Shown piece after piece: positions 10,940 to 21,466 of a stretch of DNA of 24,000 nucleotides (position 1 is the first letter of the stretch; each line of letters opens with the position of its first letter). The translations under genes were made by a program, and so were the position numbers. The stretch comes from an uncultured Phascolarctobacterium sp. (GTDB lineage: Bacteria; Bacillota; Negativicutes; Acidaminococcales; Acidaminococcaceae): NCBI RefSeq assembly GCF_900770955.1, contig NZ_CAAGLX010000021.1, forward strand, positions 85,631 through 109,630, written 5' to 3'. Under the pieces are notes generated by a model. That model did no database searches and was not told where the DNA came from. It was given only the letters and a program-made list of their open reading frames with translations.

Positions 10940-11147
10940 GTGCTTGTTTTACTTTCCGGCAATTTATTTATTTTTTTGTTTAGTGAAGGTCAGATAGTCA
11001 CTTTGTTAAACCAAGGTTTAGAAATATCAATTTTTATACTTAGGGTTATCTTGACATTAGCCCCCAAGTTTGGAAGGTTAGAGATGCCTTCTATGTGCCT
11101 TACGAGTTTCATACCTAATAGCTCAAGAACCAGTTACACCACCGCTC

Positions 11148-11176
11148 TAGACTAAAGCCTAAAGCAGTGGTATAAT
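11148..11176 (+). promoter_or_regulatory. Candidate plus-strand promoter reading antisense into the small ORF and hammerhead region
   Basis: TAGACT (11148-11153), a 17-nt spacer ending in TGG, then TATAAT (11171-11176). A second TATAAT lies at 11182-11187. Confidence 0.35.
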
Positions 11177-11207
11177 AATAGTATAATGGTCTTAGGAACT
11201 CAGGTGC

Positions 11208-11339
11208 CTACTTGCAATCGCTAAAACATTCAACGATTATTATTGCCAAAACCGCACCCAGGCAAGATGCAGCAGCAATAACTTCATTGAAGAATAAAGC
11301 ATCCAGGTAGGTGCCGAGACCTATCAAGATGAATTCCAT
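11208..11339 (-). CDS. Hypothetical 43-aa hydrophobic peptide (below the ORF-track cutoff)
   Basis: My own translation is MEFILIGLGTYLDALFFNEVIAAASCLGAVLAIIIVECFSDCK*. GGAG lies 9 nt upstream of the ATG. There are two hydrophobic stretches. I recognise no homology, so the coding status is unproven. Confidence 0.3.
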   Translation of the reverse strand: MEFILIGLGTYLDALFFNEVIAAASCLGAVLAIIIVECFSDCK

Positions 11340-11388
11340 AGAAGTCATCTCCGTTCTTCCAAAGACGAGTGTATTTTAACTGAATGAA

Positions 11389-11451
11389 CCCCGTTTCGTC
11401 TTAATCTTCCAAGACTCATCAGCGCCGTTTATCGTTAATCGGCGGACAGGA
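11389..11451 (-). ncRNA. Type III hammerhead ribozyme (candidate)
   Basis: The minus strand reads uCCUGUC|CGCCG-auuaacgauaaa-CGGCG-CUGAUGA-GUCUU-ggaagauu-AAGAC-GAAAC-GGGG. It has a GUC cleavage triplet, a 5-bp stem I hairpin and an intact CUGAUGA box. Stem II is 5 bp with the G10.1-C11.1 pair, the GAAA box is intact, and stem III (ACGGGG/UCCUGU) closes with 6 pairs including two G-U. Confidence 0.7.
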
Positions 11452-11463
11452 AAAACTAGAATT

Positions 11464-11501
11464 ATGCCCCTTACTAGACAATAAAATCTAGCAAGGGGCA
11501 T
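11464..11501. other. Long hairpin immediately 5' (in minus sense) of the hammerhead
   Basis: ATGCCCCTT (11464-11472) pairs with AAGGGGCAT (11493-11501), with an inner CTAGA/TCTAG stem. U-rich sequence follows on the plus strand (TAAATTTATTT). On the minus strand a U5 run lies 8 nt away. It could terminate a plus-strand antisense RNA. Confidence 0.4.
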
Positions 11502-11710
11502 TAAATTTATTTGGACCTCCAAAACAGTGGCTAAAGTCAAACCACCGGGGGCGGAAACGCAACCCTAAAAAATATATTTTTATATATTTTCCTTCTGTCA
11601 AAAGTTACCTAAAATTTTCAGATAACTTATCAAAACAAAAATAATCGCGCCCGCTTTATTTATAGACGCGATTAATTGCTTATACAGAGAGAGCAATAGA
11701 ATTCCATCGT

Positions 11711-11760
11711 TATAATAAAAATAAGGATTCACTTCCGATTTACTTGCGAAGTGAATCCTT
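11711..11760 (-). terminator. Terminator of the HTH gene (bidirectional hairpin)
   Basis: A perfect 13-bp stem, AAGGATTCACTTC (11723-11735) with GAAGTGAATCCTT (11748-11760), abuts the stop codon. T-runs follow on both strands. Confidence 0.7.
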
Positions 11761-11959
11761 ATTTTTTGTTTGTTAAGCCTAAAATGTAATCCGTGGATGT
11801 GTTATGAAATTTAGCCAAGGCAATGAGTATATCTGTCGGTATATCACGCTCGCCTTTTTCATAGTTGCTGTAGACTCTTTGTGAGCAGTTAAGGATTTCA
11901 GCCATTTGTGTTTGCGTCATATCCTTGTCCTCACGTAAGTCGCGAATGCGCTGATACAT
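11759..11959 (-). CDS. XRE-family helix-turn-helix transcriptional regulator (66 aa)
   Basis: MYQRIRDLREDKDMTQTQMAEILNCSQRVYSNYEKGERDIPTDILIALAKFHNTSTDYILGL is a textbook HTH_3/Cro-C1 pattern. An alternative GTG start lies at 11968 (track). The gene is divergent from the four-gene operon. Confidence 0.85.
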   Translation of the reverse strand: MYQRIRDLREDKDMTQTQMAEILNCSQRVYSNYEKGERDIPTDILIALAKFHNTSTDYILGLTNKK

Positions 11960-12008
11960 TGTTATCACCCAATAACATTATAGAAAGAGATGGCACTTCA
12001 ACTTGCTA

Positions 12009-12029
12009 TTTAGCGCAAATTGCGCTAAA
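12009..12029. promoter_or_regulatory. Perfect 10-1-10 palindrome, candidate operator
   Basis: TTTAGCGCAA-A-TTGCGCTAAA lies 27 nt upstream (in minus-strand sense) of the minus-strand TATAAT at 11977-11982. That TATAAT would drive the HTH gene. Confidence 0.5.
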
Positions 12030-12094: not shown

Positions 12095-12122
12095 TTGACT
12101 GGGGGGGACAACAGTGTATCAT
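12095..12122 (+). promoter_or_regulatory. Candidate promoter of the four-gene operon with a G7 tract in the spacer
   Basis: TTGACT (12095-12100), a 16-nt spacer beginning GGGGGGG (12101-12107), then TATCAT (12117-12122). A TATAAT follows at 12123-12128. Confidence 0.4.
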
Positions 12123-12182: not shown

Positions 12183-15100
12183 ATGAAGTTTATTAACAAT
12201 GTTAATGAAACATTAAGAGATGATATGGCCGCAGAAATGAAAAAGGGCAGTAAGCTGTCTATCGCTGCTGCCTATTTTTCTATCTATGCGTTTGAAGCGT
12301 TGCGCAAAGAACTGAGTAATATCGACGAATTGCGTTTTATTTTTACTGATCCTACATTTATTCAGAAGGAGAACAGCAAAAAGGAAAAGCGTGAGTTTTA
12401 TATTCCTAAATTAAAGCGCGAGCGTGGCATTTACGGTACGGAATTTGAAGTGAAGCTACGCAATGAATTGAACCAAAAGGCTATTGCCAGGGAATGTGCA
12501 AATTGGGTTAAGAAGAAGGTTATGTTTAAATCCAATGTAGGCAATAAGGATATTACGGATAAGTTTATTTTGCTGGATGACAAGGCATATTTTCCTGTTA
12601 ACGGCTTTACAACCGTTGATTTAGGCTGTGAGCAGGGTAATAACATGGGAACTAACATCGCGAAGGTTGCAAGCCCCATGTCGTTGACGCTGATAGAGCA
12701 GTTTGAAAAGCTCTGGCAGAATAATGAAGAGTTACAGGATGTAACTGACAAGGTAATAAGCAGTATCAGCTCTGCTTATAACGAAAATGCTCCGGAGTTT
12801 ATATATTTTGTGACGTTATATAATATTTTCCATGAATTTCTTGACGATATCAGCGAGGATGAACTGCCGAATGAGCGCACAGGCTTTAAAAACAGTAAAA
12901 TCTGGAGCATGCTCTTTAATTTTCAACGTGATGCAGCGCTTGGCATCATCAACAAGCTGGAAAAATATAATGGCTGTATTTTGGCAGACAGTGTAGGCTT
13001 GGGCAAAACCTTTACGGCTTTGGCTGTTATTAAATATTACGAGGGGCGCAATAAAAGTGTGCTTGTTTTGTGTCCGAAAAAGCTGGCAGACAACTGGAAT
13101 ACCTATCGTGCCAACTACAAAAATAATCCTATTGCTGCAGACCGTTTAGGTTACGATGTTTTGTATCACACGGATTTGCTGCGTAAGCATGGCTACAGCG
13201 GTTCCCTTGATTTAAGCAAGATTAACTGGAGCAATTATGATTTGGTCGTTATAGATGAATCGCATAATTTCCGTAACGGCGGTGCGTTTAGTGATGACGA
13301 AAAAGAAAATCGCTATACGGTGCTTATGAACAAGGTTATTCGCGAGGGTGTGCAGACAAAGGTGCTGATGCTTTCGGCTACGCCGGTAAATAACCGCTTT
13401 AATGATTTGAAAAATCAGCTGCAATTAGCCTATGAAGGAGATAGCAGCAAAATAAACGATAAGCTGGATACGAAAAGCTCGATTGAAGATATTTTCCGCA
13501 ATGCGCAGGCAGCATACAACCAGTGGTCGAAGCTGTTGCCGGAAGAGCGTACCTTGCAAAAGCTGTTGGAGCATCTGAGCTATGATTTCTTCACGCTTTT
13601 GGATTCTGTAACTATTGCGCGCTCGCGTAAGCATATTACCAAGTATTACGATACCAAAGATATCGGTAACTTTCCGGAGCGCAAAACGCCGCTGTCTTTC
13701 CGTCCTGCGTTGGTTACGGATGGCTCGGTAAATTACAGCGAGATTTTTGCCAAGTTGGATGAGCTGGAGCTTTCGGTGTATACGCCTACGGAGTTTATCC
13801 TGAACAGCCGTCAGCAAAAATATGCAGCACTTTTTGACGATAACAAGGTTAATACCGGTTTCACGCAGTCGAACCGTGAGCGCGGTATTCGCCGCTTAAT
13901 GGCGATAAATATTTTGAAGCGTATGGAAAGCTCGGTGTATTCCTTCAGGCTGACTGTTATAAGAGTACGGGCGAGAATCGCTGCAGTTTTAGATAAAATT
14001 TATCGCTATACACAGCACAGGCTCGCAAATGCACAGATTGAATCAGGTGCGGATATAGACACAACTGATTTTGATATGGAAGAGGAAAGCTTTACCGTAG
14101 GCAAAAAGGTGCCTATTTCGCTGGCAGATATGGATATTGTAAGCTGGGCAAATAGCCTGCAGCGTGACAAGGAGCGTTTGGATGAGCTGCTTGGCCTGGT
14201 GCAGGGCATAACGCCTGAGCAGGATAATAAGCTGCATGAGCTGCTGACGCTTATTGATAATAAAATTCAGCATCCTCTGAATGCAGGCAATAAGAAAATT
14301 ATCATCTTTACGGCTTTTACCGATACAGCACAGTATCTTTATGAGCATGTAAGTGCTTATGCCAAAGAAAAATTTGGCCTAGACACTGCTATGATTACCG
14401 GTACAGTTGATGGCAGGTCTACAATTCCTGAATTGAGATGTGATTTTAACACCGTGCTGACCTGCTTTGCGCCTTTGGCCAAGGATAAAGCGCTGTTGTT
14501 CCCGGAAGATAACAATGAGATAGATATTCTGATTGCGACAGATTGTATTTCCGAAGGCCAGAACCTGCAGGATTGCGATTATTTGGTTAATTACGATATT
14601 CACTGGAACCCGGTGCGTATAATCCAGCGCTTTGGGCGTATTGACCGTATTGGCAGCAAGAACGCTTATATTCAACTGGTCAATTTTTGGCCTGATGTTG
14701 ATTTAGATGAATACATAGATTTGAAAAGTCGCGTTGAAAGCCGTATGAAGGCGGTGGATTTGACAGCGACGGCAGATGACAACCTGCTGAGTAATAATGA
14801 AAAGCTGGATTTGCAATACCGCAAGCAACAGCTTAAGCAATTGCAAAAAGAGGTTGTTGATATCGAGGATATGGGTACAGGTATTTCCATCATGGATTTG
14901 GGCTTGAATGAATTCCGCCTGGATTTACTGGAATATATCAAGACGCATGGCGAGCTGGATAAAACACCCTTCGGCCTGCATGCCGTTGTACCTGCGAGTG
15001 AGGAATGTCCTCCGGGTGTAATTTACGTGCTGAAAAACTGCACGGATAACATAAATATAGACAGAAAAAATCTTCTGCATCCGTTTTACGCCGTATATAT

Positions 15101-15419
15101 TGGCGAGGATGGCGAGATTATCTGCAACCATCTGGCGCCGAAAAAGCTGCTGGACAAGCTGCGCTTTACCTGCCGTGGCAAGGACAAGCCTTTGACGGAT
15201 TTGTGCAATGAGTTTAACAAGGTGACGGATGACGGCAGAAATATGGGTGTTTATTCCCGGCTTTTGGAGGATGCTATTGCTTCCATAATCAACGTGAAGG
15301 ATGCAGACGATGTGGACAGCTTCCTGAGCGGTGAGGAAATCAGCTTCTTTGACAACAGTATTAAAGGACTGGATGATTTTGAACTGATTTGTTTCCTCGT
15401 TGTGCGGGGTGAGCAGTGA
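12183..15419 (+). CDS. SNF2-family helicase with N-terminal PLD-like domain lacking the catalytic His
   Basis: SNF2 motifs: ILADSVGLGKT (about 12979-13010), DLVVIDESHNFRN (DESH at 13254-13265), LMLSATPVNN, KIIIFTAFTDT, and ATDCISEGQNLQDCDYLVNYDIHWNPVRIIQRFGRIDRIGS. The N-terminus (LSIAAAYFSIYAFEAL..., TDKFILLD) has a PLD/HKD-like layout. Confidence 0.9.
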   Translation: MKFINNVNETLRDDMAAEMKKGSKLSIAAAYFSIYAFEALRKELSNIDELRFIFTDPTFIQKENSKKEKREFYIPKLKRERGIYGTEFEVKLRNELNQKAIARECANWVKKKVMFKSNVGNKDITDKFILLDDKAYFPVNGFTTVDLGCEQGNNMGTNIAKVASPMSLTLIEQFEKLWQNNEELQDVTDKVISSISSAYNENAPEFIYFVTLYNIFHEFLDDISEDELPNERTGFKNSKIWSMLFNFQRDAALGIINKLEKYNGCILADSVGLGKTFTALAVIKYYEGRNKSVLVLCPKKLADNWNTYRANYKNNPIAADRLGYDVLYHTDLLRKHGYSGSLDLSKINWSNYDLVVIDESHNFRNGGAFSDDEKENRYTVLMNKVIREGVQTKVLMLSATPVNNRFNDLKNQLQLAYEGDSSKINDKLDTKSSIEDIFRNAQAAYNQWSKLLPEERTLQKLLEHLSYDFFTLLDSVTIARSRKHITKYYDTKDIGNFPERKTPLSFRPALVTDGSVNYSEIFAKLDELELSVYTPTEFILNSRQQKYAALFDDNKVNTGFTQSNRERGIRRLMAINILKRMESSVYSFRLTVIRVRARIAAVLDKIYRYTQHRLANAQIESGADIDTTDFDMEEESFTVGKKVPISLADMDIVSWANSLQRDKERLDELLGLVQGITPEQDNKLHELLTLIDNKIQHPLNAGNKKIIIFTAFTDTAQYLYEHVSAYAKEKFGLDTAMITGTVDGRSTIPELRCDFNTVLTCFAPLAKDKALLFPEDNNEIDILIATDCISEGQNLQDCDYLVNYDIHWNPVRIIQRFGRIDRIGSKNAYIQLVNFWPDVDLDEYIDLKSRVESRMKAVDLTATADDNLLSNNEKLDLQYRKQQLKQLQKEVVDIEDMGTGISIMDLGLNEFRLDLLEYIKTHGELDKTPFGLHAVVPASEECPPGVIYVLKNCTDNINIDRKNLLHPFYAVYIGEDGEIICNHLAPKKLLDKLRFTCRGKDKPLTDLCNEFNKVTDDGRNMGVYSRLLEDAIASIINVKDADDVDSFLSGEEISFFDNSIKGLDDFELICFLVVRGEQ

Positions 15420-16030
15420 TGTTAGGCTTACCGCAGACTACAGAAGTTAAGAAGATTATCCCTAAACGTGCCTTATACAGCAAGTTTGAAATGAATACAG
15501 CGGAGCAGAAGGAGTTTGACGCAGCCATCAGGCAGATGAGCATTGTCAACGAAATTTCCTTGCGTACAATTCCTGCTTTGCAGAAAAAAGAAGAGAACAA
15601 AGCAATCTTTGTTCTTGCCGTACAGCTGAAGCAGGAGGGGTGCGCGGAAAGGCTTTTGCAAAGGCTGTGCAGGCTGATTGACCAGCGCTTGCTGTTAGCG
15701 CTTTGCTATGAAGATAAGCTGCAGCTGGCACTGTATTTCGATAACAGAATATTGCTCAATGAATTTATGCTTGCAAGCGAGCAGCAAGTGCACTTGCAAG
15801 GCACAAGCCTAAACGATATTTGGGAGCACTTAGCTCTGCAGGTGGCGCAATTAACGCCACGTGCAGGGCTTACACCTGCTTCTGTAATTGCCAACGCCGG
15901 CAGGCGGGCAGAAGCAGAAGCACAGATAGCAGCGCTGATGAAGAAAATGTTTGCGGAAAAGCAGGCACGCAAAAAACTGACCTTGCGTGAAGCAATAAAC
16001 AAGCTGAAAAAAGAACTGGAGGATTTATAA
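15416..16030 (+). CDS. Hypothetical protein, DUF4391-like (assignment from memory, unverified)
   Basis: The GTG at 15416 and ATG at 15419 overlap the upstream TGA (GTGATG). The 204-aa product has the N-terminal pattern LPQTTEVKKIIPKRALYSKF and a C-terminal charged coiled-coil-like tail (RRAEAEAQIAALMKKMFAEKQARKKLTLREAINKLKKELEDL). I see no catalytic motif. Confidence 0.6.
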   Translation: MMLGLPQTTEVKKIIPKRALYSKFEMNTAEQKEFDAAIRQMSIVNEISLRTIPALQKKEENKAIFVLAVQLKQEGCAERLLQRLCRLIDQRLLLALCYEDKLQLALYFDNRILLNEFMLASEQQVHLQGTSLNDIWEHLALQVAQLTPRAGLTPASVIANAGRRAEAEAQIAALMKKMFAEKQARKKLTLREAINKLKKELEDL

Positions 16031-17946
16031 TGATGGAACATCTCAACATGCAATCTATGGATAAGGTTGCAGCAAACGTAGCCAAGATAAGGGAGCTATT
16101 CCCTAATTGCGTAACGGAAATAATCAATAAAGAGGGCAAGCTGGAGCATGCCATTGATTTTGATATGCTGAAACAGGAGCTTAGTGACCATGTTGTAGAT
16201 GGTTTGCAGGAACGCTATCAGTTCACTTGGCCGGATAAACGCAAGGCTATTCTTGCTGCTAATGCGCCGATTAATAAGACCTTGCGCCCCTGCAGAGAGG
16301 AGAGCGTAGACTTCGATAATACGGAGAACCTTTATATTGAAGGCGATAATCTGGAAGTGCTCAAGCTGCTGCAGGAAACGTATTTGGGCAAGGTGAAGAT
16401 CATTTATATTGATCCGCCGTATAATACAGGTAAGGATTTTGTTTATAATGATGATTTTAAGCAAAGCCTAGATGAGTATGTTGAAAACAGCGGACAGTTA
16501 GATGATGATGGCAATCGTCTTGTAGCTAATACAGAAAGCAATGGTCGTTTTCATACTGATTGGCTTAATATGATGTATCCAAGGTTGAAGCTGGCGAAGG
16601 ATTTATTGAGTGAAGATGGTGTTATTTTTATTAGTATAGATTCTATTGAATGTTCAAATTTACGTAAAATATGTGATGAAATATTTGACGTAGAAAATTT
16701 TATATGTAATGCAATTTGGAGATCTTCAGATAATAGCAATAATGATGCAAAAAAATTCTCTAATGATTATAATTCAACACTAATATATAGTAAGAACGCT
16801 TTATGGCAACCTCGAAAACAAGAAGATCCTGAAAAAAGAAAACATTTTAAAAATCCGGATAATGATCCTAAAGGAGCATATTTTGATGGTAATCCATTAA
16901 ATTCACCTAACTACAGAGAAAACTTGAGATATAATATTGTTTCACCTTCTGGAAAGATAATATATCCACCCAAAAATGGTTGGAGATGGTCAAAAGAAAC
17001 TATGTTGGAAAAAATTCGTACAGGTGAAATAAGATTTAATAAAGATGAGAATAACATAAAACGTAGAACTTATCTTTGTGATATGAAAGGATTACCACCT
17101 TCAAATTTGTGGATAGATTTTACGAGAACTGGGCATAATCGGCAAGCTAAATATGAGTTATTAAGTATATTGCCAGAAGATGTATTTGATACTCCGAAAC
17201 CGGTTTTGTTAATAAAATACATATTGAAATTAGTAGACGATTCAAAAAATGCGATTGTTATGGATTTTTTTAGTGGATCAGCTACTACTGCTGATGCAGT
17301 AATGCAAATGAACAATGAGGATTCTGGCAAGAGAAAATATATTTTAGTACAATTACCTGAAAATCTTGATTATAGTTTAGTCCATGCTTCGAATGATGGT
17401 AAAAAGACAATAGAAAATGCAATTGCATTATGCGATAAACTTAAAAGAAAACATCTTCTAACAGAAATAGCGAAGGAGCGCATCCGTCGTGCCGGCCAAA
17501 AAATCAAAGACGAAAATCCGCTGACAACACAGGATTTGGATATTGGCTTCCGTGTTTTGAAATGCGACAGCAGCAACATGGAAGATGTGTACTTCACACC
17601 GAAGGAATACATGGATAAACAGCAGAATTTGTTTGTCGATAATATTAAAGCAGACCGTAGCGACGAGGATTTGCTGTTTGATGCTATGCTGAAGCTGGAT
17701 ACGCCGCTTTCCAGTAAAATCGAAAAAAGAAGCATTGCCGGCAAAACTGTTTACAATGTGGCACAAGGTCATTTAATGGCATGCTTTGACAAGGATGTGA
17801 CGGATGAGGTTATCACCGCCATTGCCAAAGAAATGCCAAGCTATTTTGTTATGCGTGACAGCTCGCAGGCAGATGACAGCGTTGCAATTAACTTTGAGCA
17901 GATTTTCAACACCTATAGTCCGCAAACTGTGAGGAGGGTGCTGTAA
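16030..17946 (+). CDS. mod: Type III restriction-modification Mod subunit (beta-class N6-adenine DNA methyltransferase predicted)
   Basis: The start overlaps the upstream stop (TAATG). The N-terminus ERYQFTWPDKRKAILAANAPINKTLRPCREESVDFDNTENLYIEGDNLEVLKLL is characteristic. Motif IV DPPY (16411-16422) precedes motif I DFFSGSATT (17263-17289), and a conserved C-terminal region follows. Confidence 0.9.
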   Translation: MMEHLNMQSMDKVAANVAKIRELFPNCVTEIINKEGKLEHAIDFDMLKQELSDHVVDGLQERYQFTWPDKRKAILAANAPINKTLRPCREESVDFDNTENLYIEGDNLEVLKLLQETYLGKVKIIYIDPPYNTGKDFVYNDDFKQSLDEYVENSGQLDDDGNRLVANTESNGRFHTDWLNMMYPRLKLAKDLLSEDGVIFISIDSIECSNLRKICDEIFDVENFICNAIWRSSDNSNNDAKKFSNDYNSTLIYSKNALWQPRKQEDPEKRKHFKNPDNDPKGAYFDGNPLNSPNYRENLRYNIVSPSGKIIYPPKNGWRWSKETMLEKIRTGEIRFNKDENNIKRRTYLCDMKGLPPSNLWIDFTRTGHNRQAKYELLSILPEDVFDTPKPVLLIKYILKLVDDSKNAIVMDFFSGSATTADAVMQMNNEDSGKRKYILVQLPENLDYSLVHASNDGKKTIENAIALCDKLKRKHLLTEIAKERIRRAGQKIKDENPLTTQDLDIGFRVLKCDSSNMEDVYFTPKEYMDKQQNLFVDNIKADRSDEDLLFDAMLKLDTPLSSKIEKRSIAGKTVYNVAQGHLMACFDKDVTDEVITAIAKEMPSYFVMRDSSQADDSVAINFEQIFNTYSPQTVRRVL

Positions 17947-20900
17947 TGAAGTTCAGTTTTAAAATTCAGCAGTACCAGACAGATGCTGTTAATGCAGTAG
18001 TGGATGTGTTCAAGGGACAGGTGCGCCCTGCGCAGGATAGCAGCTACTTTTTTGATCCGGGAAAACTGGTGCCGGTGAAAACAAAAAAAGCAAAGAATAC
18101 AAGTGGCTATAATTTATTTCAGCAGGAGCTGGATGAACAGGAAGCCAAGCAGGATATTATTCTTGGTTATGCCAACGCGCCTATCAAATTGGATAAAACT
18201 CAGCTTTTGGAGAATATCAAGCTTATTCAAGGCAATAACAATATAACTCCGTCTAAAGAGCTTATAGAAGGTCAAGGCAAATGCAGTCTTGATATCGAAA
18301 TGGAAACAGGTACAGGCAAAACCTATGTCTATATCAAAACCATGTTTGAGCTGAATAAGCAATATGGCTGGAACAAGTTTATTATCATCGTGCCTTCTGT
18401 CGCAATTCGTGAAGGTGTCAGGAAAAGCTTTGAAATGATGGAAGAGCATTTCATGAGCCAGTATGGCAAGAAAGTGCGTTATTTCATCTATGACAGTAAG
18501 AATTTGACGAAGATAGATGATTTTGCCAAAAGCAACGAAATCAACGTAATGATTATTAATAATCAAGCTTTTGCCAAGTCTTTGAATGAGGAAAAGAATA
18601 AAGAAGGCCGTGGCGGTGATAAGGGTGCATTGATTATCTACAGTGAACGTGATGATTTTGGTTCACGCAAGCCTATTGATGTTATCGCCAAAACTAATCC
18701 TATTTTGATTCTAGATGAACCGCAGAAGCTGAATGGTCCTGCTACGCAAAAAGCAATGAAGCGCTTTAATCCGCTTTTTAGCGTCAATTATTCTGCTACG
18801 CATAAACAGGAGCATAACGAAGTATACCGTTTAGATGCGCTTGATGCCTACAATCATAAGCTGGTCAAAAAGATAGAGGTTAAGGGTATTGAGGTTGTAA
18901 ATCTCAAAGGCATTGACGGTTATCTTTACTGCGACAGCTTTGTAACCAGCAAAGATAAAGCACCTATGGTAAAGCTGGAATTTGAACAGCAGCTGAAAAG
19001 CGGTACTGTCAAGCGTGTTTTACGCAATTGTTCCTATGGAGATAATCTGTACGAGCTTTCTAACGGCATGCTGCAGTACGAAGGCTATAAAATCAGTGAA
19101 ATTGATGCCAGCGATACCGGTTGCGTAAGATTTACTAACGGCGAAGAATTACATAGCGGTGAAGTAGCCAACAACAGTCAGGAAATGGCAAACTTACGTC
19201 GTGTGCAGATTCGTGAAACTATAAAATCTCACTTTGAAAAGGAAGAACAGCTTTTTGCGCAGGGCATCAAAACCTTATCGCTATTTTTTATTGATGAGGT
19301 TGCCAAGTACAGATTATATGACGAAGATGGCACACAAAAGCTGGGCGAATACGGTAAAATCTTCGAAGAAGAATATCAGAAAATATTTAGAGATAGGATG
19401 CAGGAGCTTTATCAAACGCCTTATGGTGAATATTTGAGAAATATGGCTGCAGATGTAAGCGTTGTACATACAGGCTACTTCAGTATTGATAAAAAAGGTC
19501 ATAGCGTTGACAGTAAATGCGAACGTGGCAAGGATACTTCTAACGATGAATCTGCCTATGATTTGATTATGCGTAACAAAGAAGCACTGTTAAGCTTTAA
19601 TAATCCTGTACGTTTTATTTTCTCTCACTCCGCATTGCGTGAAGGCTGGGATAACCCCAATGTTTTTCAAATCTGTACCCTGAAGCAGTCCAACAGCAAT
19701 GTCAATAAGCGTCAGGAGGTCGGTCGTGGTATGCGTATCTGTGTTAATCAGCAGGGTGAGCGCATGGACGAAAGCGTATGCGGAGCTAATGTGCATATTG
19801 TTAATAAGCTGACGGTTATTGCCAGCGAAAGCTATGCCGGTTTTGTCGACAGCTTGCAGGATGAAATCAAAAAAGCTCTGTATGAACGTCCTGAAAAGGT
19901 ATCTATAGAGTACTTCTTTGGCAGAGTAGTAAAGGTTGGCGATGAAACTTATAAAATTGAAGGCGAGCAAGCTCGTCAGATAGTGAAATATCTTGACAGA
20001 CATGATTATCTTGACGATGATGACAGAATCACCGAAAAATATAAGCAGGATGCTGCCAACGGTACTTTGGAGCCTGTGCAGGATAAGCTTAAGGATATTG
20101 AGCCTGCTGTACATGTGCTGATTAAGAGCCTGTATGATAATGATTCACTTAAGGATATGATTACTAACGGTAATCAGACAACCGTTGAAAACAAGCTCAA
20201 CAATAAGAATTTTGAAAAGCAGGAATTTCAGGAGCTGTGGAAGCGTATCAACCGTAAGTGCGCTTATACCGTAAAGCTTGATAGCAATGAGCTGATTGAC
20301 AAGGCTGTAGCAGCAATTGATGCTAAGCTGCAGGTTACTCAAACACTTTATACCTTGAGCGTCGGAGATCAGAAGAATACTATGCAGGCGCATGAATTAG
20401 AGCAAAAAACCAGCTTTGTATCACCCGCGCATACTACAAACGTATTGGATAATGCTCATGACAGCAGCTTGAAGTATGATTTGCTGCACGAGCTGACGCA
20501 GCGAACATCGCTGACACGTCGCACGGTTGCTGCTATTTTGAGCAGAATCAATATGATGAAGTACATGAAGTTCCGTGATAATCCGGAAGAGTTTATCAGT
20601 AAGGTTGCACGTCTGATTAATGAACAGAAGGCAGGCCTGATTGTAGAAGGCGTTACCTACAATACGACAAATGAAGTATTTGACAAAGAAATTTTTACGG
20701 CAGAATGTCATCGTGTAGCTTTGTCAAAAGTATTTCCTGCGCTGCGTGCTGTAACTGATTACGTTGTTACTGATGGCATAGCCGAGCAGAGTGTAGAGCG
20801 CAAATTTGTTGAAAATCTGGATAAAGCAGATGAAGTTGCAGTATATGCAAAGCTTCCGCGTGGATTTTACATCCCAACGCCTGTAGGTAAATATTCGCCG

Positions 20901-21113
20901 GACTGGGCAATTGCTTTCAAAGAGGGTAAAATTAAGTACGTATATTTTATTGCTGAAACCAAAGGAACAAATGAAAGTACGGAACTGAAATCTATGGAGC
21001 AGGCAAAAATTAAATGTGCCGAGAAGCTTTTTGAAAAGCTTTCCAACGGCGAAGTGCATTACGGTCAGGTAAAGGATTACAAGAGCCTGATGGATATTGT
21101 ACTGGATAAATAA
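17946..21113 (+). CDS. res: Type III restriction enzyme Res subunit (SF2 helicase plus C-terminal PD-(D/E)xK nuclease)
   Basis: The start overlaps the mod stop (TAATG). Motifs: ETGTGKT Walker A (about 18300-18326), DEPQ (18714-18725), SATH, ALREGWDNPNVF and QEVGRGMRI. The nuclease motif is PDW (D at 20901-20903) ... AETKG (E at 20955-20957, K at 20961-20963). Confidence 0.9.
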   Translation: MKFSFKIQQYQTDAVNAVVDVFKGQVRPAQDSSYFFDPGKLVPVKTKKAKNTSGYNLFQQELDEQEAKQDIILGYANAPIKLDKTQLLENIKLIQGNNNITPSKELIEGQGKCSLDIEMETGTGKTYVYIKTMFELNKQYGWNKFIIIVPSVAIREGVRKSFEMMEEHFMSQYGKKVRYFIYDSKNLTKIDDFAKSNEINVMIINNQAFAKSLNEEKNKEGRGGDKGALIIYSERDDFGSRKPIDVIAKTNPILILDEPQKLNGPATQKAMKRFNPLFSVNYSATHKQEHNEVYRLDALDAYNHKLVKKIEVKGIEVVNLKGIDGYLYCDSFVTSKDKAPMVKLEFEQQLKSGTVKRVLRNCSYGDNLYELSNGMLQYEGYKISEIDASDTGCVRFTNGEELHSGEVANNSQEMANLRRVQIRETIKSHFEKEEQLFAQGIKTLSLFFIDEVAKYRLYDEDGTQKLGEYGKIFEEEYQKIFRDRMQELYQTPYGEYLRNMAADVSVVHTGYFSIDKKGHSVDSKCERGKDTSNDESAYDLIMRNKEALLSFNNPVRFIFSHSALREGWDNPNVFQICTLKQSNSNVNKRQEVGRGMRICVNQQGERMDESVCGANVHIVNKLTVIASESYAGFVDSLQDEIKKALYERPEKVSIEYFFGRVVKVGDETYKIEGEQARQIVKYLDRHDYLDDDDRITEKYKQDAANGTLEPVQDKLKDIEPAVHVLIKSLYDNDSLKDMITNGNQTTVENKLNNKNFEKQEFQELWKRINRKCAYTVKLDSNELIDKAVAAIDAKLQVTQTLYTLSVGDQKNTMQAHELEQKTSFVSPAHTTNVLDNAHDSSLKYDLLHELTQRTSLTRRTVAAILSRINMMKYMKFRDNPEEFISKVARLINEQKAGLIVEGVTYNTTNEVFDKEIFTAECHRVALSKVFPALRAVTDYVVTDGIAEQSVERKFVENLDKADEVAVYAKLPRGFYIPTPVGKYSPDWAIAFKEGKIKYVYFIAETKGTNESTELKSMEQAKIKCAEKLFEKLSNGEVHYGQVKDYKSLMDIVLDK

Positions 21114-21229: not shown

Positions 21230-21258
21230 TTGACAAATAGCAGTAACAGTAATATAAT
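21230..21258 (+). promoter_or_regulatory. Consensus sigma-70 promoter of the lysine-riboswitch operon
   Basis: TTGACA (21230-21235), exactly 17 nt, then TATAAT (21253-21258). Confidence 0.65.
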
Positions 21259-21280
21259 TTTTTTAATAGCAAACCATTAA

Positions 21281-21434
21281 GATAGAGGCGCGGAAAGCAT
21301 GAGTAGGTTGTGGAGCGGGAGCTGAGAAGCATCACAAAAGGGCTAACGCCGAAGTGCAATGGCAGCCGTGTCGTTGTGCTGGGCCGTCAGTGAAAGCTGC
21401 CGGACTGTCGCTGCATCTGCAGCGGAGGGCTATC
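21281..21434 (+). promoter_or_regulatory. Lysine riboswitch (L-box) aptamer
   Basis: The conserved L-box blocks occur in order: GAUAGAGGCGCG, GAGUAGG, GCCGAAG, ACUGUC and GGAGGGCUAUC. P1 forms from GAUAG...CUAUC. The element lies upstream of lysine-biosynthesis genes. Confidence 0.8.
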
Positions 21435-21466
21435 TCGGCTATGGGTGTGAATATTATTTAGCATGC

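Follow-up and report, generated by a model that had tools for sequence, protein, structure and literature searches.

A Type III restriction-modification operon of Phascolarctobacterium with a conserved Snf2-DUF4391 gene pair and two cargo slots in its relatives

Introduction

What would a Snf2-family ATPase and a small protein of the DUF4391 family do in front of a gene pair for Type III restriction and modification (R-M)? The question is raised by a stretch of 24,000 nucleotides (nt) from an uncultured Phascolarctobacterium sp. (contig NZ_CAAGLX010000021.1, positions 85,631 to 109,630), the whole of which is called the window below. Four overlapping open reading frames (ORFs) on its plus strand encode, in this order, the Snf2-family ATPase (SNF2), the DUF4391 protein and the Type III subunits Mod and Res (database matches with E-values in brackets):

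12183-15419, plus strand: Snf2-family ATPase, 1078 amino acids (aa); Pfam SNF2-rel_dom and Helicase_C
15419-16030, plus strand (alternative GTG start at 15416): DUF4391 protein, 203 aa; Pfam DUF4391 (4.4e-20)
16030-17946, plus strand: Type III Mod, a beta-class amino-methyltransferase, 638 aa; PADLOC MTase_III (5e-226), Pfam N6_N4_Mtase
17946-21113, plus strand: Type III Res, 1055 aa, a superfamily 2 (SF2) ATPase with a C-terminal PD-(D/E)xK domain; PADLOC REase_III (6e-290), Pfam ResIII and RE_endonuc (4.6e-31)

The four genes are read here as one operon encoding a two-module defence system based on DNA modification, in which a canonical Type III enzyme would be joined by a separable, dependent Snf2-DUF4391 accessory motor. 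This explanation as a whole is held at somewhat under one half (about 45%). Judged from sequence, the cassette counts as a Type III R-M variant that is both widespread and uncharacterised; it combines a conserved add-on (Snf2-DUF4391) with a pair of cargo slots. The window carries its minimal form, with both slots empty.

Gene junctions

An earlier note, made from the letters of this DNA, had described overlaps at all three junctions (GTGATG, TAATG and TAATG). These were found where it had placed them, in the contexts cagTGATGtta, ttaTAATGatg and ctgTAATGaag, and at the last two junctions a Shine-Dalgarno-like GGAGG or GAGGAGG lies directly 5' of the starts of mod and res. At the first junction the letters GTGATG stand, but the GTG at 15416 is not favoured as the start codon: homologues of the DUF4391 protein begin to align at query residue 2, and translation therefore most likely starts at the ATG at 15419, with a 1-nt overlap (TGATG). 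Overlapping stop and start codons are frequent in operons and by themselves weak proof. The arrangement is taken to exceed chance because its order is conserved across about 100 loci.

Distribution of the gene order

A DUF4391 profile built from a tight alignment (A3) was used to collect 80 loci, one per GTDB species, which sample one mostly clostridial subclade; other phyla were covered by tblastn against plasmids. The gene content of the 80 loci was determined by phmmer, with the four proteins of the window as queries against the ORFs of each locus. The loci come mostly from gut Clostridia, together with some Negativicutes, one Sphaerochaetaceae genome and Bacteroides/Prevotella contigs of metagenome-assembled genomes. 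SNF2, DUF4391, Mod and Res follow each other in the same order on a single strand in 62 of the 80 species-level loci; most of the other 18 are truncated by contig ends, and about five are true exceptions. The gap from SNF2 to DUF4391 is typically -19 to +22 nt. The identical gene order was found in five further metagenomic lineages.

The DUF4391 protein of the window gave no plasmid match as a tblastn query, and a consensus-like homologue (P0297) gave 26 records. The order of the cassette, with a distant DUF4391, was found on plasmids of E. coli, Acinetobacter, Methylotuvimicrobium, Sulfitobacter and Mycolicibacterium, and searches with SNF2 and Res located it on plasmids of Listeria and Lactococcus, so that the plasmid hosts comprise Gamma- and Alphaproteobacteria, Actinobacteria and Bacilli. 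E. coli CFT073 is one of 88 complete genomes, among 5,426 of its species, that hold relatives of the SNF2/DUF4391 segment, and all four genes were present in each of four E. coli lineages inspected; the order is thus known from E. coli chromosomes as well as from plasmids. The CFT073 copy (L100, 9001-18661) lies in the leuX island, with a WYL-domain helix-turn-helix (HTH) regulator before the operon, and an IncFIB plasmid copy lies at 3234-12562 of L093. The impression, voiced in the earlier note, that this gene order recurs in genomes was thus borne out in the species loci, on plasmids of at least three phyla and in at least four E. coli lineages. The linkage of SNF2 and the small protein to mod/res, which the note had set as a check, was likewise upheld (about 93% of evaluable DUF4391 loci). 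The cassette is widespread across bacterial phyla and no chance neighbourhood.

Many copies of the cassette are hit by insertion sequences: IS712 in SNF2, IS30, IS1, IS256 and IS5 in or near mod, and IS3 between SNF2 and DUF4391. Examples are L. cremoris pJM1D (L098, 1220-7140) and the loci L094, L097, L101, L102 and L103. Inactivation of the cassette seems frequent, as expected of costly defence genes.

The Snf2-family ATPase

The SNF2 protein comprises a conserved N-terminus of 240 aa, a split Snf2 core (about residues 245-415 and 650-880) and a conserved C-terminal part of ~200 aa. Its ATPase motifs (GLGKT, DESH, SATP and QRFGRIDR) are all intact and its identity across phyla is 51-55%, which together point to strong purifying selection. 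Nothing above cutoff was found in NCBIfam. The best PADLOC match, over the full length, was C3a139 'HKD+Snf2' (2.8e-127), a gene cluster defined among genes near type III CRISPR loci (Shah et al., 2018).

The earlier note had called this protein PLD-like, a label that was not confirmed and that is suggested by the name of the PADLOC model alone. No Pfam PLD match to the N-terminus was obtained, even at E<=10, and a motif scan of the entire 1078 aa found no HxK; the position expected for HKD is occupied by a conserved (T/M/R)FKSN in 75 orthologues, also across phyla. On these grounds an active HKD/PLD nuclease fused to SNF2 was ruled out. If derived from a PLD domain at all, the N-terminus would be catalytically dead. 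A PDB profile search with this region was without match, and an AlphaFold2 (AF2) run on residues 1-245 with a shallow alignment gave a predicted local distance difference test (pLDDT) score of 37.6.

About 20 of the 75 orthologues are some 125 aa longer (e.g. L001, L009 and L011, with a SNF2 of about 1200 aa). The three named, which are those with Pfam results, each bear a YAcAr (SLOG-type) domain, a fold usually linked to the binding of nucleotide-derived ligands.

The DUF4391 protein

The second protein matches Pfam DUF4391 (PF14335) with 73 bits against a cutoff of 29.9, residues 3-201 aligning to model positions 1-232. It was modelled by AF2 at a pLDDT of 91.6, as an alpha/beta domain (residues 1-125) followed by a long helical hairpin (131-202) whose tip bears a conserved EKQP(R/K)KK motif. 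Foldseek comparison of the model with the PDB gave no significant fold match. The family alignments contain no invariant residues of catalytic type, in keeping with the earlier description of a small protein without recognisable catalytic motif. Homologues form 504 clusters at 50% identity, and neither PADLOC nor NCBIfam holds a DUF4391 model. The protein evolves fast, the distant plasmid copies being 21-26% identical.

Type III Mod and Res

Mod is homologous to the Mod subunits of EcoP15I (1e-56) and H. pylori (3e-72), and Res to EcoP15I Res (2e-73); both are, by their alignments, full-length homologues of the solved EcoP15I subunits. The motifs that had been reported as intact were found, motif I of Mod in variant form. 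In Mod, motif IV (DPPY) lies at residue 128. Motif I, at about residue 440, takes the FxGxA variant form (FFSGSATT). Res, which is 44-52% identical across phyla, carries GTGKT, LDEPQ, QEVGRGMR and the PD-(D/E)xK signature SPD...AETKG. The remark that the pair looks self-sufficient was supported by close relatives that occur as Mod-Res only.

Comparison with another strain of the species (L108) gave identities of 96% for SNF2, 93% for DUF4391 and 96% for Res, and of only 67% for Mod. The nucleotide alignment of the two strains breaks at 16687-17464, in the central specificity region of mod, and this region (about 16687-17464) is swapped between strains. The lowest GC content of the window, 0.31 (16500-17500), coincides with the replaced part, which suggests that the target-recognition domain of mod was imported from elsewhere.

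Co-divergence and dependence

Pairwise divergence was compared by Spearman correlation over 50 complete loci. The coefficients were 0.75 for SNF2 with Res, 0.65 for SNF2 with DUF4391 and 0.69 for DUF4391 with Res; every pair that included Mod gave 0.37-0.47. The loci L037 and L038 illustrate the pattern, with identities of 0.99 (SNF2), 0.99 (DUF4391) and 0.90 (Res) against 0.66 for Mod. Co-variation of DUF4391 with Mod specificity was rejected, as DUF4391 tracks SNF2 and Res instead. Because its divergence follows the two ATPases and not Mod, DUF4391 is no partner of the specificity domain.

The dependence of the two modules on each other is asymmetric. On two plasmids, C. taeniosporum pCt3 and E. 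faecalis pE006-19, the only partner of a close Res relative is Mod; on A. veronii pHX3 such a relative is accompanied by Mod and an embedded AAA/DUF4276 pair. SNF2-DUF4391 was found without Mod/Res in only about five of the evaluable loci. In two of them, L039 (9992-12356) and L047 (5070-7670), SNF2 is followed by a DUF4391 fused to ASCH (PUA-like superfamily) and then by an uncharacterised protein of 420-480 aa, and Mod/Res are missing. We read SNF2-DUF4391 as a separable add-on that would need a partner, Mod/Res being the usual one. In L047 a BREX brxL gene lies nearby on the opposite strand.

Cargo slots

In most relatives of the cassette, diverse defence genes are inserted at two fixed slots, one after DUF4391 and one after mod. 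The gap from DUF4391 to mod is <=58 nt in only 7 of 75 loci, and that from mod to res <=65 nt in 7 of 64; elsewhere both measure 0.3-6 kb. The 131 ORFs in the slots form 70 sequence clusters, none of which occurs in both slots; 116 of these ORFs have the orientation of the operon. TIR proteins are abundant in the first slot (12 of 64), and SIR2 with HerA, RES, AbiH, KAP, Schlafen-like and DUF4365 proteins were also found there. The second slot holds RhuM, nucleoside-deoxyribosyltransferase-like, Abi_C, DUF2971 and Lar-like proteins. Among PADLOC models, cargo matched PDC-S66, PDC-S05, PDC-S23, a ThsB-like TIR and SIR2/HerA; a Shedu-like gene is also among the cargo.

On two plasmids a large AAA ATPase gene lies 3' of res on the same strand (Mycolicibacterium, L095, 14683-17274; Methylotuvimicrobium, L096, 14914-17022). 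The Mycolicibacterium protein is AAA_13/SMC-like and of ABC type. These genes may mark a third cargo position or be a further accessory gene.

Comparison with known systems

With classical Type III R-M (EcoP15I, EcoPI, StyLTI) the cassette shares full-length homologous Mod and Res, the mod-then-res order with overlapping codons, the beta-class methyltransferase layout, the SF2 ATPase and the C-terminal PD-(D/E)xK domain, and NCBIfam PRK15483 aligns end to end. It differs in the two conserved extra genes 5' of mod in the same operon, and in a Res of the RE_endonuc (PF19778) subfamily, which scored 386 bits against an NCBIfam cutoff of 564. The 25 best of the 27 PADLOC matches of Mod were all to R-M methyltransferase models, and Res matched REase_III models only.

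For some Type III systems, a 'third group' with Eco86II and BspHIV, a further ATPase gene of helicase-like type has been described 5' of mod, in >500 genomes and with unassigned function (Murray et al., 2021; PMC8259958). In Eco86II, which methylates m4C, this ATPase is dispensable for methylation and was absent from a DNA-cutting preparation; the paper makes no mention of a second, small gene or of embedded genes (PMC8259958). Like these systems, the cassette has a Snf2-related ATPase gene directly 5' of Type III mod/res. Eco86II was located in E. coli NCTC86 as three genes, for an SNF2 of 963 aa, a Mod of 1040 aa and a Res of 1126 aa, and the DUF4391 profile found nothing at this locus; no signal was found either for a DUF4391 fused inside the large Mod. 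The Eco86II SNF2 lacks the 240-aa N-terminus and is about 32% identical to that of the window, in two helicase-lobe segments only. Its Mod matches in the methyltransferase core only (27%) and its Res could not be aligned by BLASTP. Membership in the Eco86II/BspHIV family was rejected on the unalignable Res, the lobes-only SNF2 match and the lack of DUF4391. That an additional ATPase of this sort can accompany Type III R-M was therefore already known (PMC8259958), and the four-gene DUF4391 family is a different lineage.

Snf2 motors are likewise found beside DNA methyltransferase genes in the methylation-based defence operons DISARM (DrmD), BREX (BrxHII) and Hma (HmaA, or 'BREX-related' HKD+Snf2 effectors). 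PADLOC matches of the window SNF2 to DrmD (4e-38), BrxH (6e-28) and HmaA (5e-25; residues 545-827) were partial and confined to the helicase lobes, DrmD reaching 152 bits against a cutoff of 610. Unlike in those systems, the motor has no fused active HKD or restriction endonuclease domain, and the nuclease resides in the separate Res. DISARM was rejected on the lack of drmA (helicase with a DUF1998 partner), drmB (DUF1998) and drmC (PLD) among the four operon genes and the housekeeping flanks and on the sub-cutoff DrmD score; BREX on the lack, in the window, of the PglZ phosphatase and BrxC ATPase that accompany the PglX methyltransferase and on the partial, helicase-lobe BrxH match; and Hma on the lack of HmaB (methylase) and HmaC (ATPase) and the partial match to HmaA (nuclease-Snf2). 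The DISARM/BREX 'hallmark' invoked earlier was reduced to analogy, the defining genes of both being absent here.

Embedded defence genes have been described in Hma, BREX, DISARM and Type I R-M operons (Payne et al., 2024 preprint, 10.1101/2024.01.29.577857). As in those scaffolds, diverse same-strand defence genes lie between the core genes of cassette relatives, and the cargo includes the 'guilt by embedding' PADLOC candidates PDC-S05, S23 and S66. In contrast, Type III operons of this kind are outside the scaffolds analysed there, and the insertion points of the cassette are fixed and, in the window, empty.

No description of the four-gene cassette was found in the literature searched, and the two papers that mention DUF4391 concern other matters. 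One has it as an entry in a gene-content table; the other, with 'DUF4391' in bioRxiv 10.64898/2026.04.21.720040 (gp127 of phage Goslar/PhiKZ), apparently means DUF7941, given the surrounding text. Surveys of lactococcal R-M, recent methylome and defensome work included, and of streptococcal R-M score only R and M. In agreement with the earlier opinion that the layout matches no named, characterised system, PADLOC and NCBIfam assign the first two genes to none.

Proposed mechanism and alternatives

In the accessory-motor explanation, by analogy with EcoP15I, Mod would recognise and methylate a short asymmetric site, and Res would provide an ATP-dependent switch and the PD-(D/E)xK cut; a Type III enzyme would hemimethylate its site and, with ATP, cleave close to one of two unmethylated sites in inverse orientation. 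SNF2, by family an ATPase of the double-stranded-DNA translocase type, would form a motor-adaptor complex with DUF4391, predicted to involve the helical hairpin of the latter. This putative complex would rely on Mod/Res for discrimination of self from non-self and would act with the Res side, presumably by contact with Res, and not with the sequence specificity of Mod. It might contribute to defence by extending or securing restriction, that is, by moving along, remodelling or clearing proteins off DNA flagged by Mod2Res. The operon frame would double as a carrier of other defence genes in its two fixed slots. The working idea of a second translocase and an adaptor backing up Type III restriction would fit the co-divergence data.

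In favour of this explanation are the full-length Mod and Res with their catalytic motifs, the conserved gene order, the co-divergence of SNF2, DUF4391 and Res, the asymmetric dependence, the intact and conserved Snf2 ATPase and the defence genes in the slots. Several observations weigh against it. Relatives with Mod and Res only indicate that restriction does not need SNF2-DUF4391, and the loci with SNF2 and DUF4391-ASCH indicate that the pair can exist without Mod/Res. The extra ATPase of Eco86II, which is of a different family, however, is dispensable for methylation and absent from the cutting preparation (PMC8259958). SNF2 and Res may co-diverge simply because they are linked, as the ends of a mobile cassette. 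The adaptor role of DUF4391 is a guess, neither a fold relative nor catalytic residues having been found.

Some of these points would suit a pair that needs nothing from Mod/Res and merely travels with the Type III genes as an independent two-gene defence, for example by attacking DNA that escapes restriction or is modified against it, like BrxU inside BREX. Each module is found without the other, the nesting of defence genes in R-M-like operons is common (Payne et al., 2024, and the slots described here), and the Eco86II ATPase is dispensable in vitro (PMC8259958). This is nevertheless considered rather unlikely: in about 93% of the DUF4391 loci that could be evaluated, Mod and Res are retained in a single order and on a single strand, SNF2-DUF4391 always stands at the 5' end and never inside the cargo slots, its divergence follows that of Res across a swapped mod, and the examples that lack Mod/Res have gained ASCH, as if to substitute for a lost partner. 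Alternatively, SNF2-DUF4391 could be a safety or establishment device, an ATP-driven remodeller that strips or restrains Mod2Res on unmethylated host DNA, alleviating restriction after entry into a new host, DNA damage or a mod swap, and making a mobile system that switches its specificity tolerable. The occurrence of the cassette on plasmids, islands and elements resembling integrative and conjugative elements is consistent with such a role, as are the frequent mod specificity swaps, which create a risk of autoimmunity, and an Eco86II ATPase that is not part of the cutting enzyme (PMC8259958). Yet relatives with Mod and Res only manage without the pair on equally mobile plasmids, there is no known precedent for a Snf2 protein restraining Type III enzymes, and in the ASCH-fused variant, which lacks Mod/Res, there would be nothing to restrain; we regard the device as improbable.

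Still less credence is given to a sensor platform, in which SNF2-DUF4391, with or without Res, would sense invader DNA and activate slot-borne TIR, SIR2 or Abi effectors. The slots directly follow DUF4391 and mod, their cargo is of stand-alone effector types, often without an obvious sensor of its own, and some SNF2 orthologues carry the YAcAr/SLOG domain typical of nucleotide-signal binding. However, the window and several other loci keep SNF2-DUF4391 despite empty slots, the diversity of the cargo speaks against a specific interface, and unrelated scaffolds hold embedded members of these cargo families as well. A bolder extension of the accessory-motor explanation, offered as a long shot, would make SNF2-DUF4391 a portable module of motor and adaptor, able to plug into whatever reads the modification state of DNA (Mod2Res, or ASCH elsewhere); acting with ATP on flagged DNA, it would extend restriction and license nested TIR, SIR2 or Abi effectors, with DUF4391 as a coupling subunit of new fold. 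A simple restriction enzyme would then become a multi-layer immune hub.

Type III R-M has been viewed as a machine of two subunits that is already solved. Across phyla, a large share of systems of Type III kind bears a highly conserved second ATPase together with DUF4391, both of which current annotation and defence tools ignore. The cassette occurs in tractable hosts and on replicons of clinical or industrial relevance (E. coli CFT073, IncF plasmids, and plasmids of Listeria, Enterococcus and Lactococcus), and its function is therefore directly testable. Knowledge of what Snf2-DUF4391 does would also bear on the Snf2 components, so far unexplained, of DISARM, BREX and Hma, and the two cargo slots offer a further scaffold for the discovery of defence genes through 'guilt by embedding'.

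Genomic setting and upstream elements

The operon lies within an island of low GC content (0.31-0.45, against about 0.5 in the flanks). Its left neighbour is rpsO, at the end of a nusA-infB-rbfA-truB-ribF-rpsO block, and its right neighbour a lysine riboswitch with dapB-asd. Before the nusA block, an ORF of 392 aa (954-2132) gave no Pfam match at E<=0.001. The following elements flank the operon:

11759-11968, minus strand: small XRE-type HTH gene, divergent from the operon; Pfam HTH_3 (1.2e-13); candidate controller
12009-12029: perfect inverted repeat of 10 nt (TTTAGCGCAA-T-TTGCGCTAAA), located between the operon promoter and the HTH gene; putative operator
12095-12122, plus strand: sigma-70-like promoter TTGACT-16-TATCAT, 60 nt 5' of the first gene, proposed from its consensus match only (10/12)
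21230-21258: perfect consensus promoter TTGACA-17-TATAAT, preceding the lysine riboswitch
21275-21440: lysine riboswitch (Rfam RF00168, 92 bits), 5' of dapB-asd

The last two elements (21230-21440) mark the right edge of the island; they are host elements and no part of the R-M operon.

The nearest relatives of the window are from Phascolarctobacterium succinatutens. Other strains of the species carry the four genes at the identical site with a different left flank: two AAA_14/DUF4143 ATPase genes lie there between rpsO and the operon (L107-L110, 3360-6240), and in their place the window has about 750 bp, mostly non-coding, at 10946-11695. The left flank of the cassette is a variable spot.

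The HTH region at 11759-11968 is common to the other strains of the species, and an HTH or WYL-HTH gene lies just 5' of the operon in many relatives (L006, L011, L095, L096 and L100), which suggests regulated expression of the whole cassette. In Proteobacteria a WYL-domain HTH gene (YafY/BrxR-like) often precedes SNF2 and overlaps its start (CFT073, L100, 8096-9001; plasmid hits H27-H29 and H35), whereas in Firmicutes, the window included, a small XRE-type HTH gene lies upstream of SNF2 instead.

Within the stretch 10946-11695, which is found in this strain only, a very hydrophobic 46-aa ORF (MTSMEFILIGLGTYLDALFFNEVIAAASCLGAVLAIIIVECFSDCK; 11208-11348, minus strand) is followed by a long hairpin or terminator-like structure (11134-11175). 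The ORF looks like a type I toxin or a small membrane peptide.

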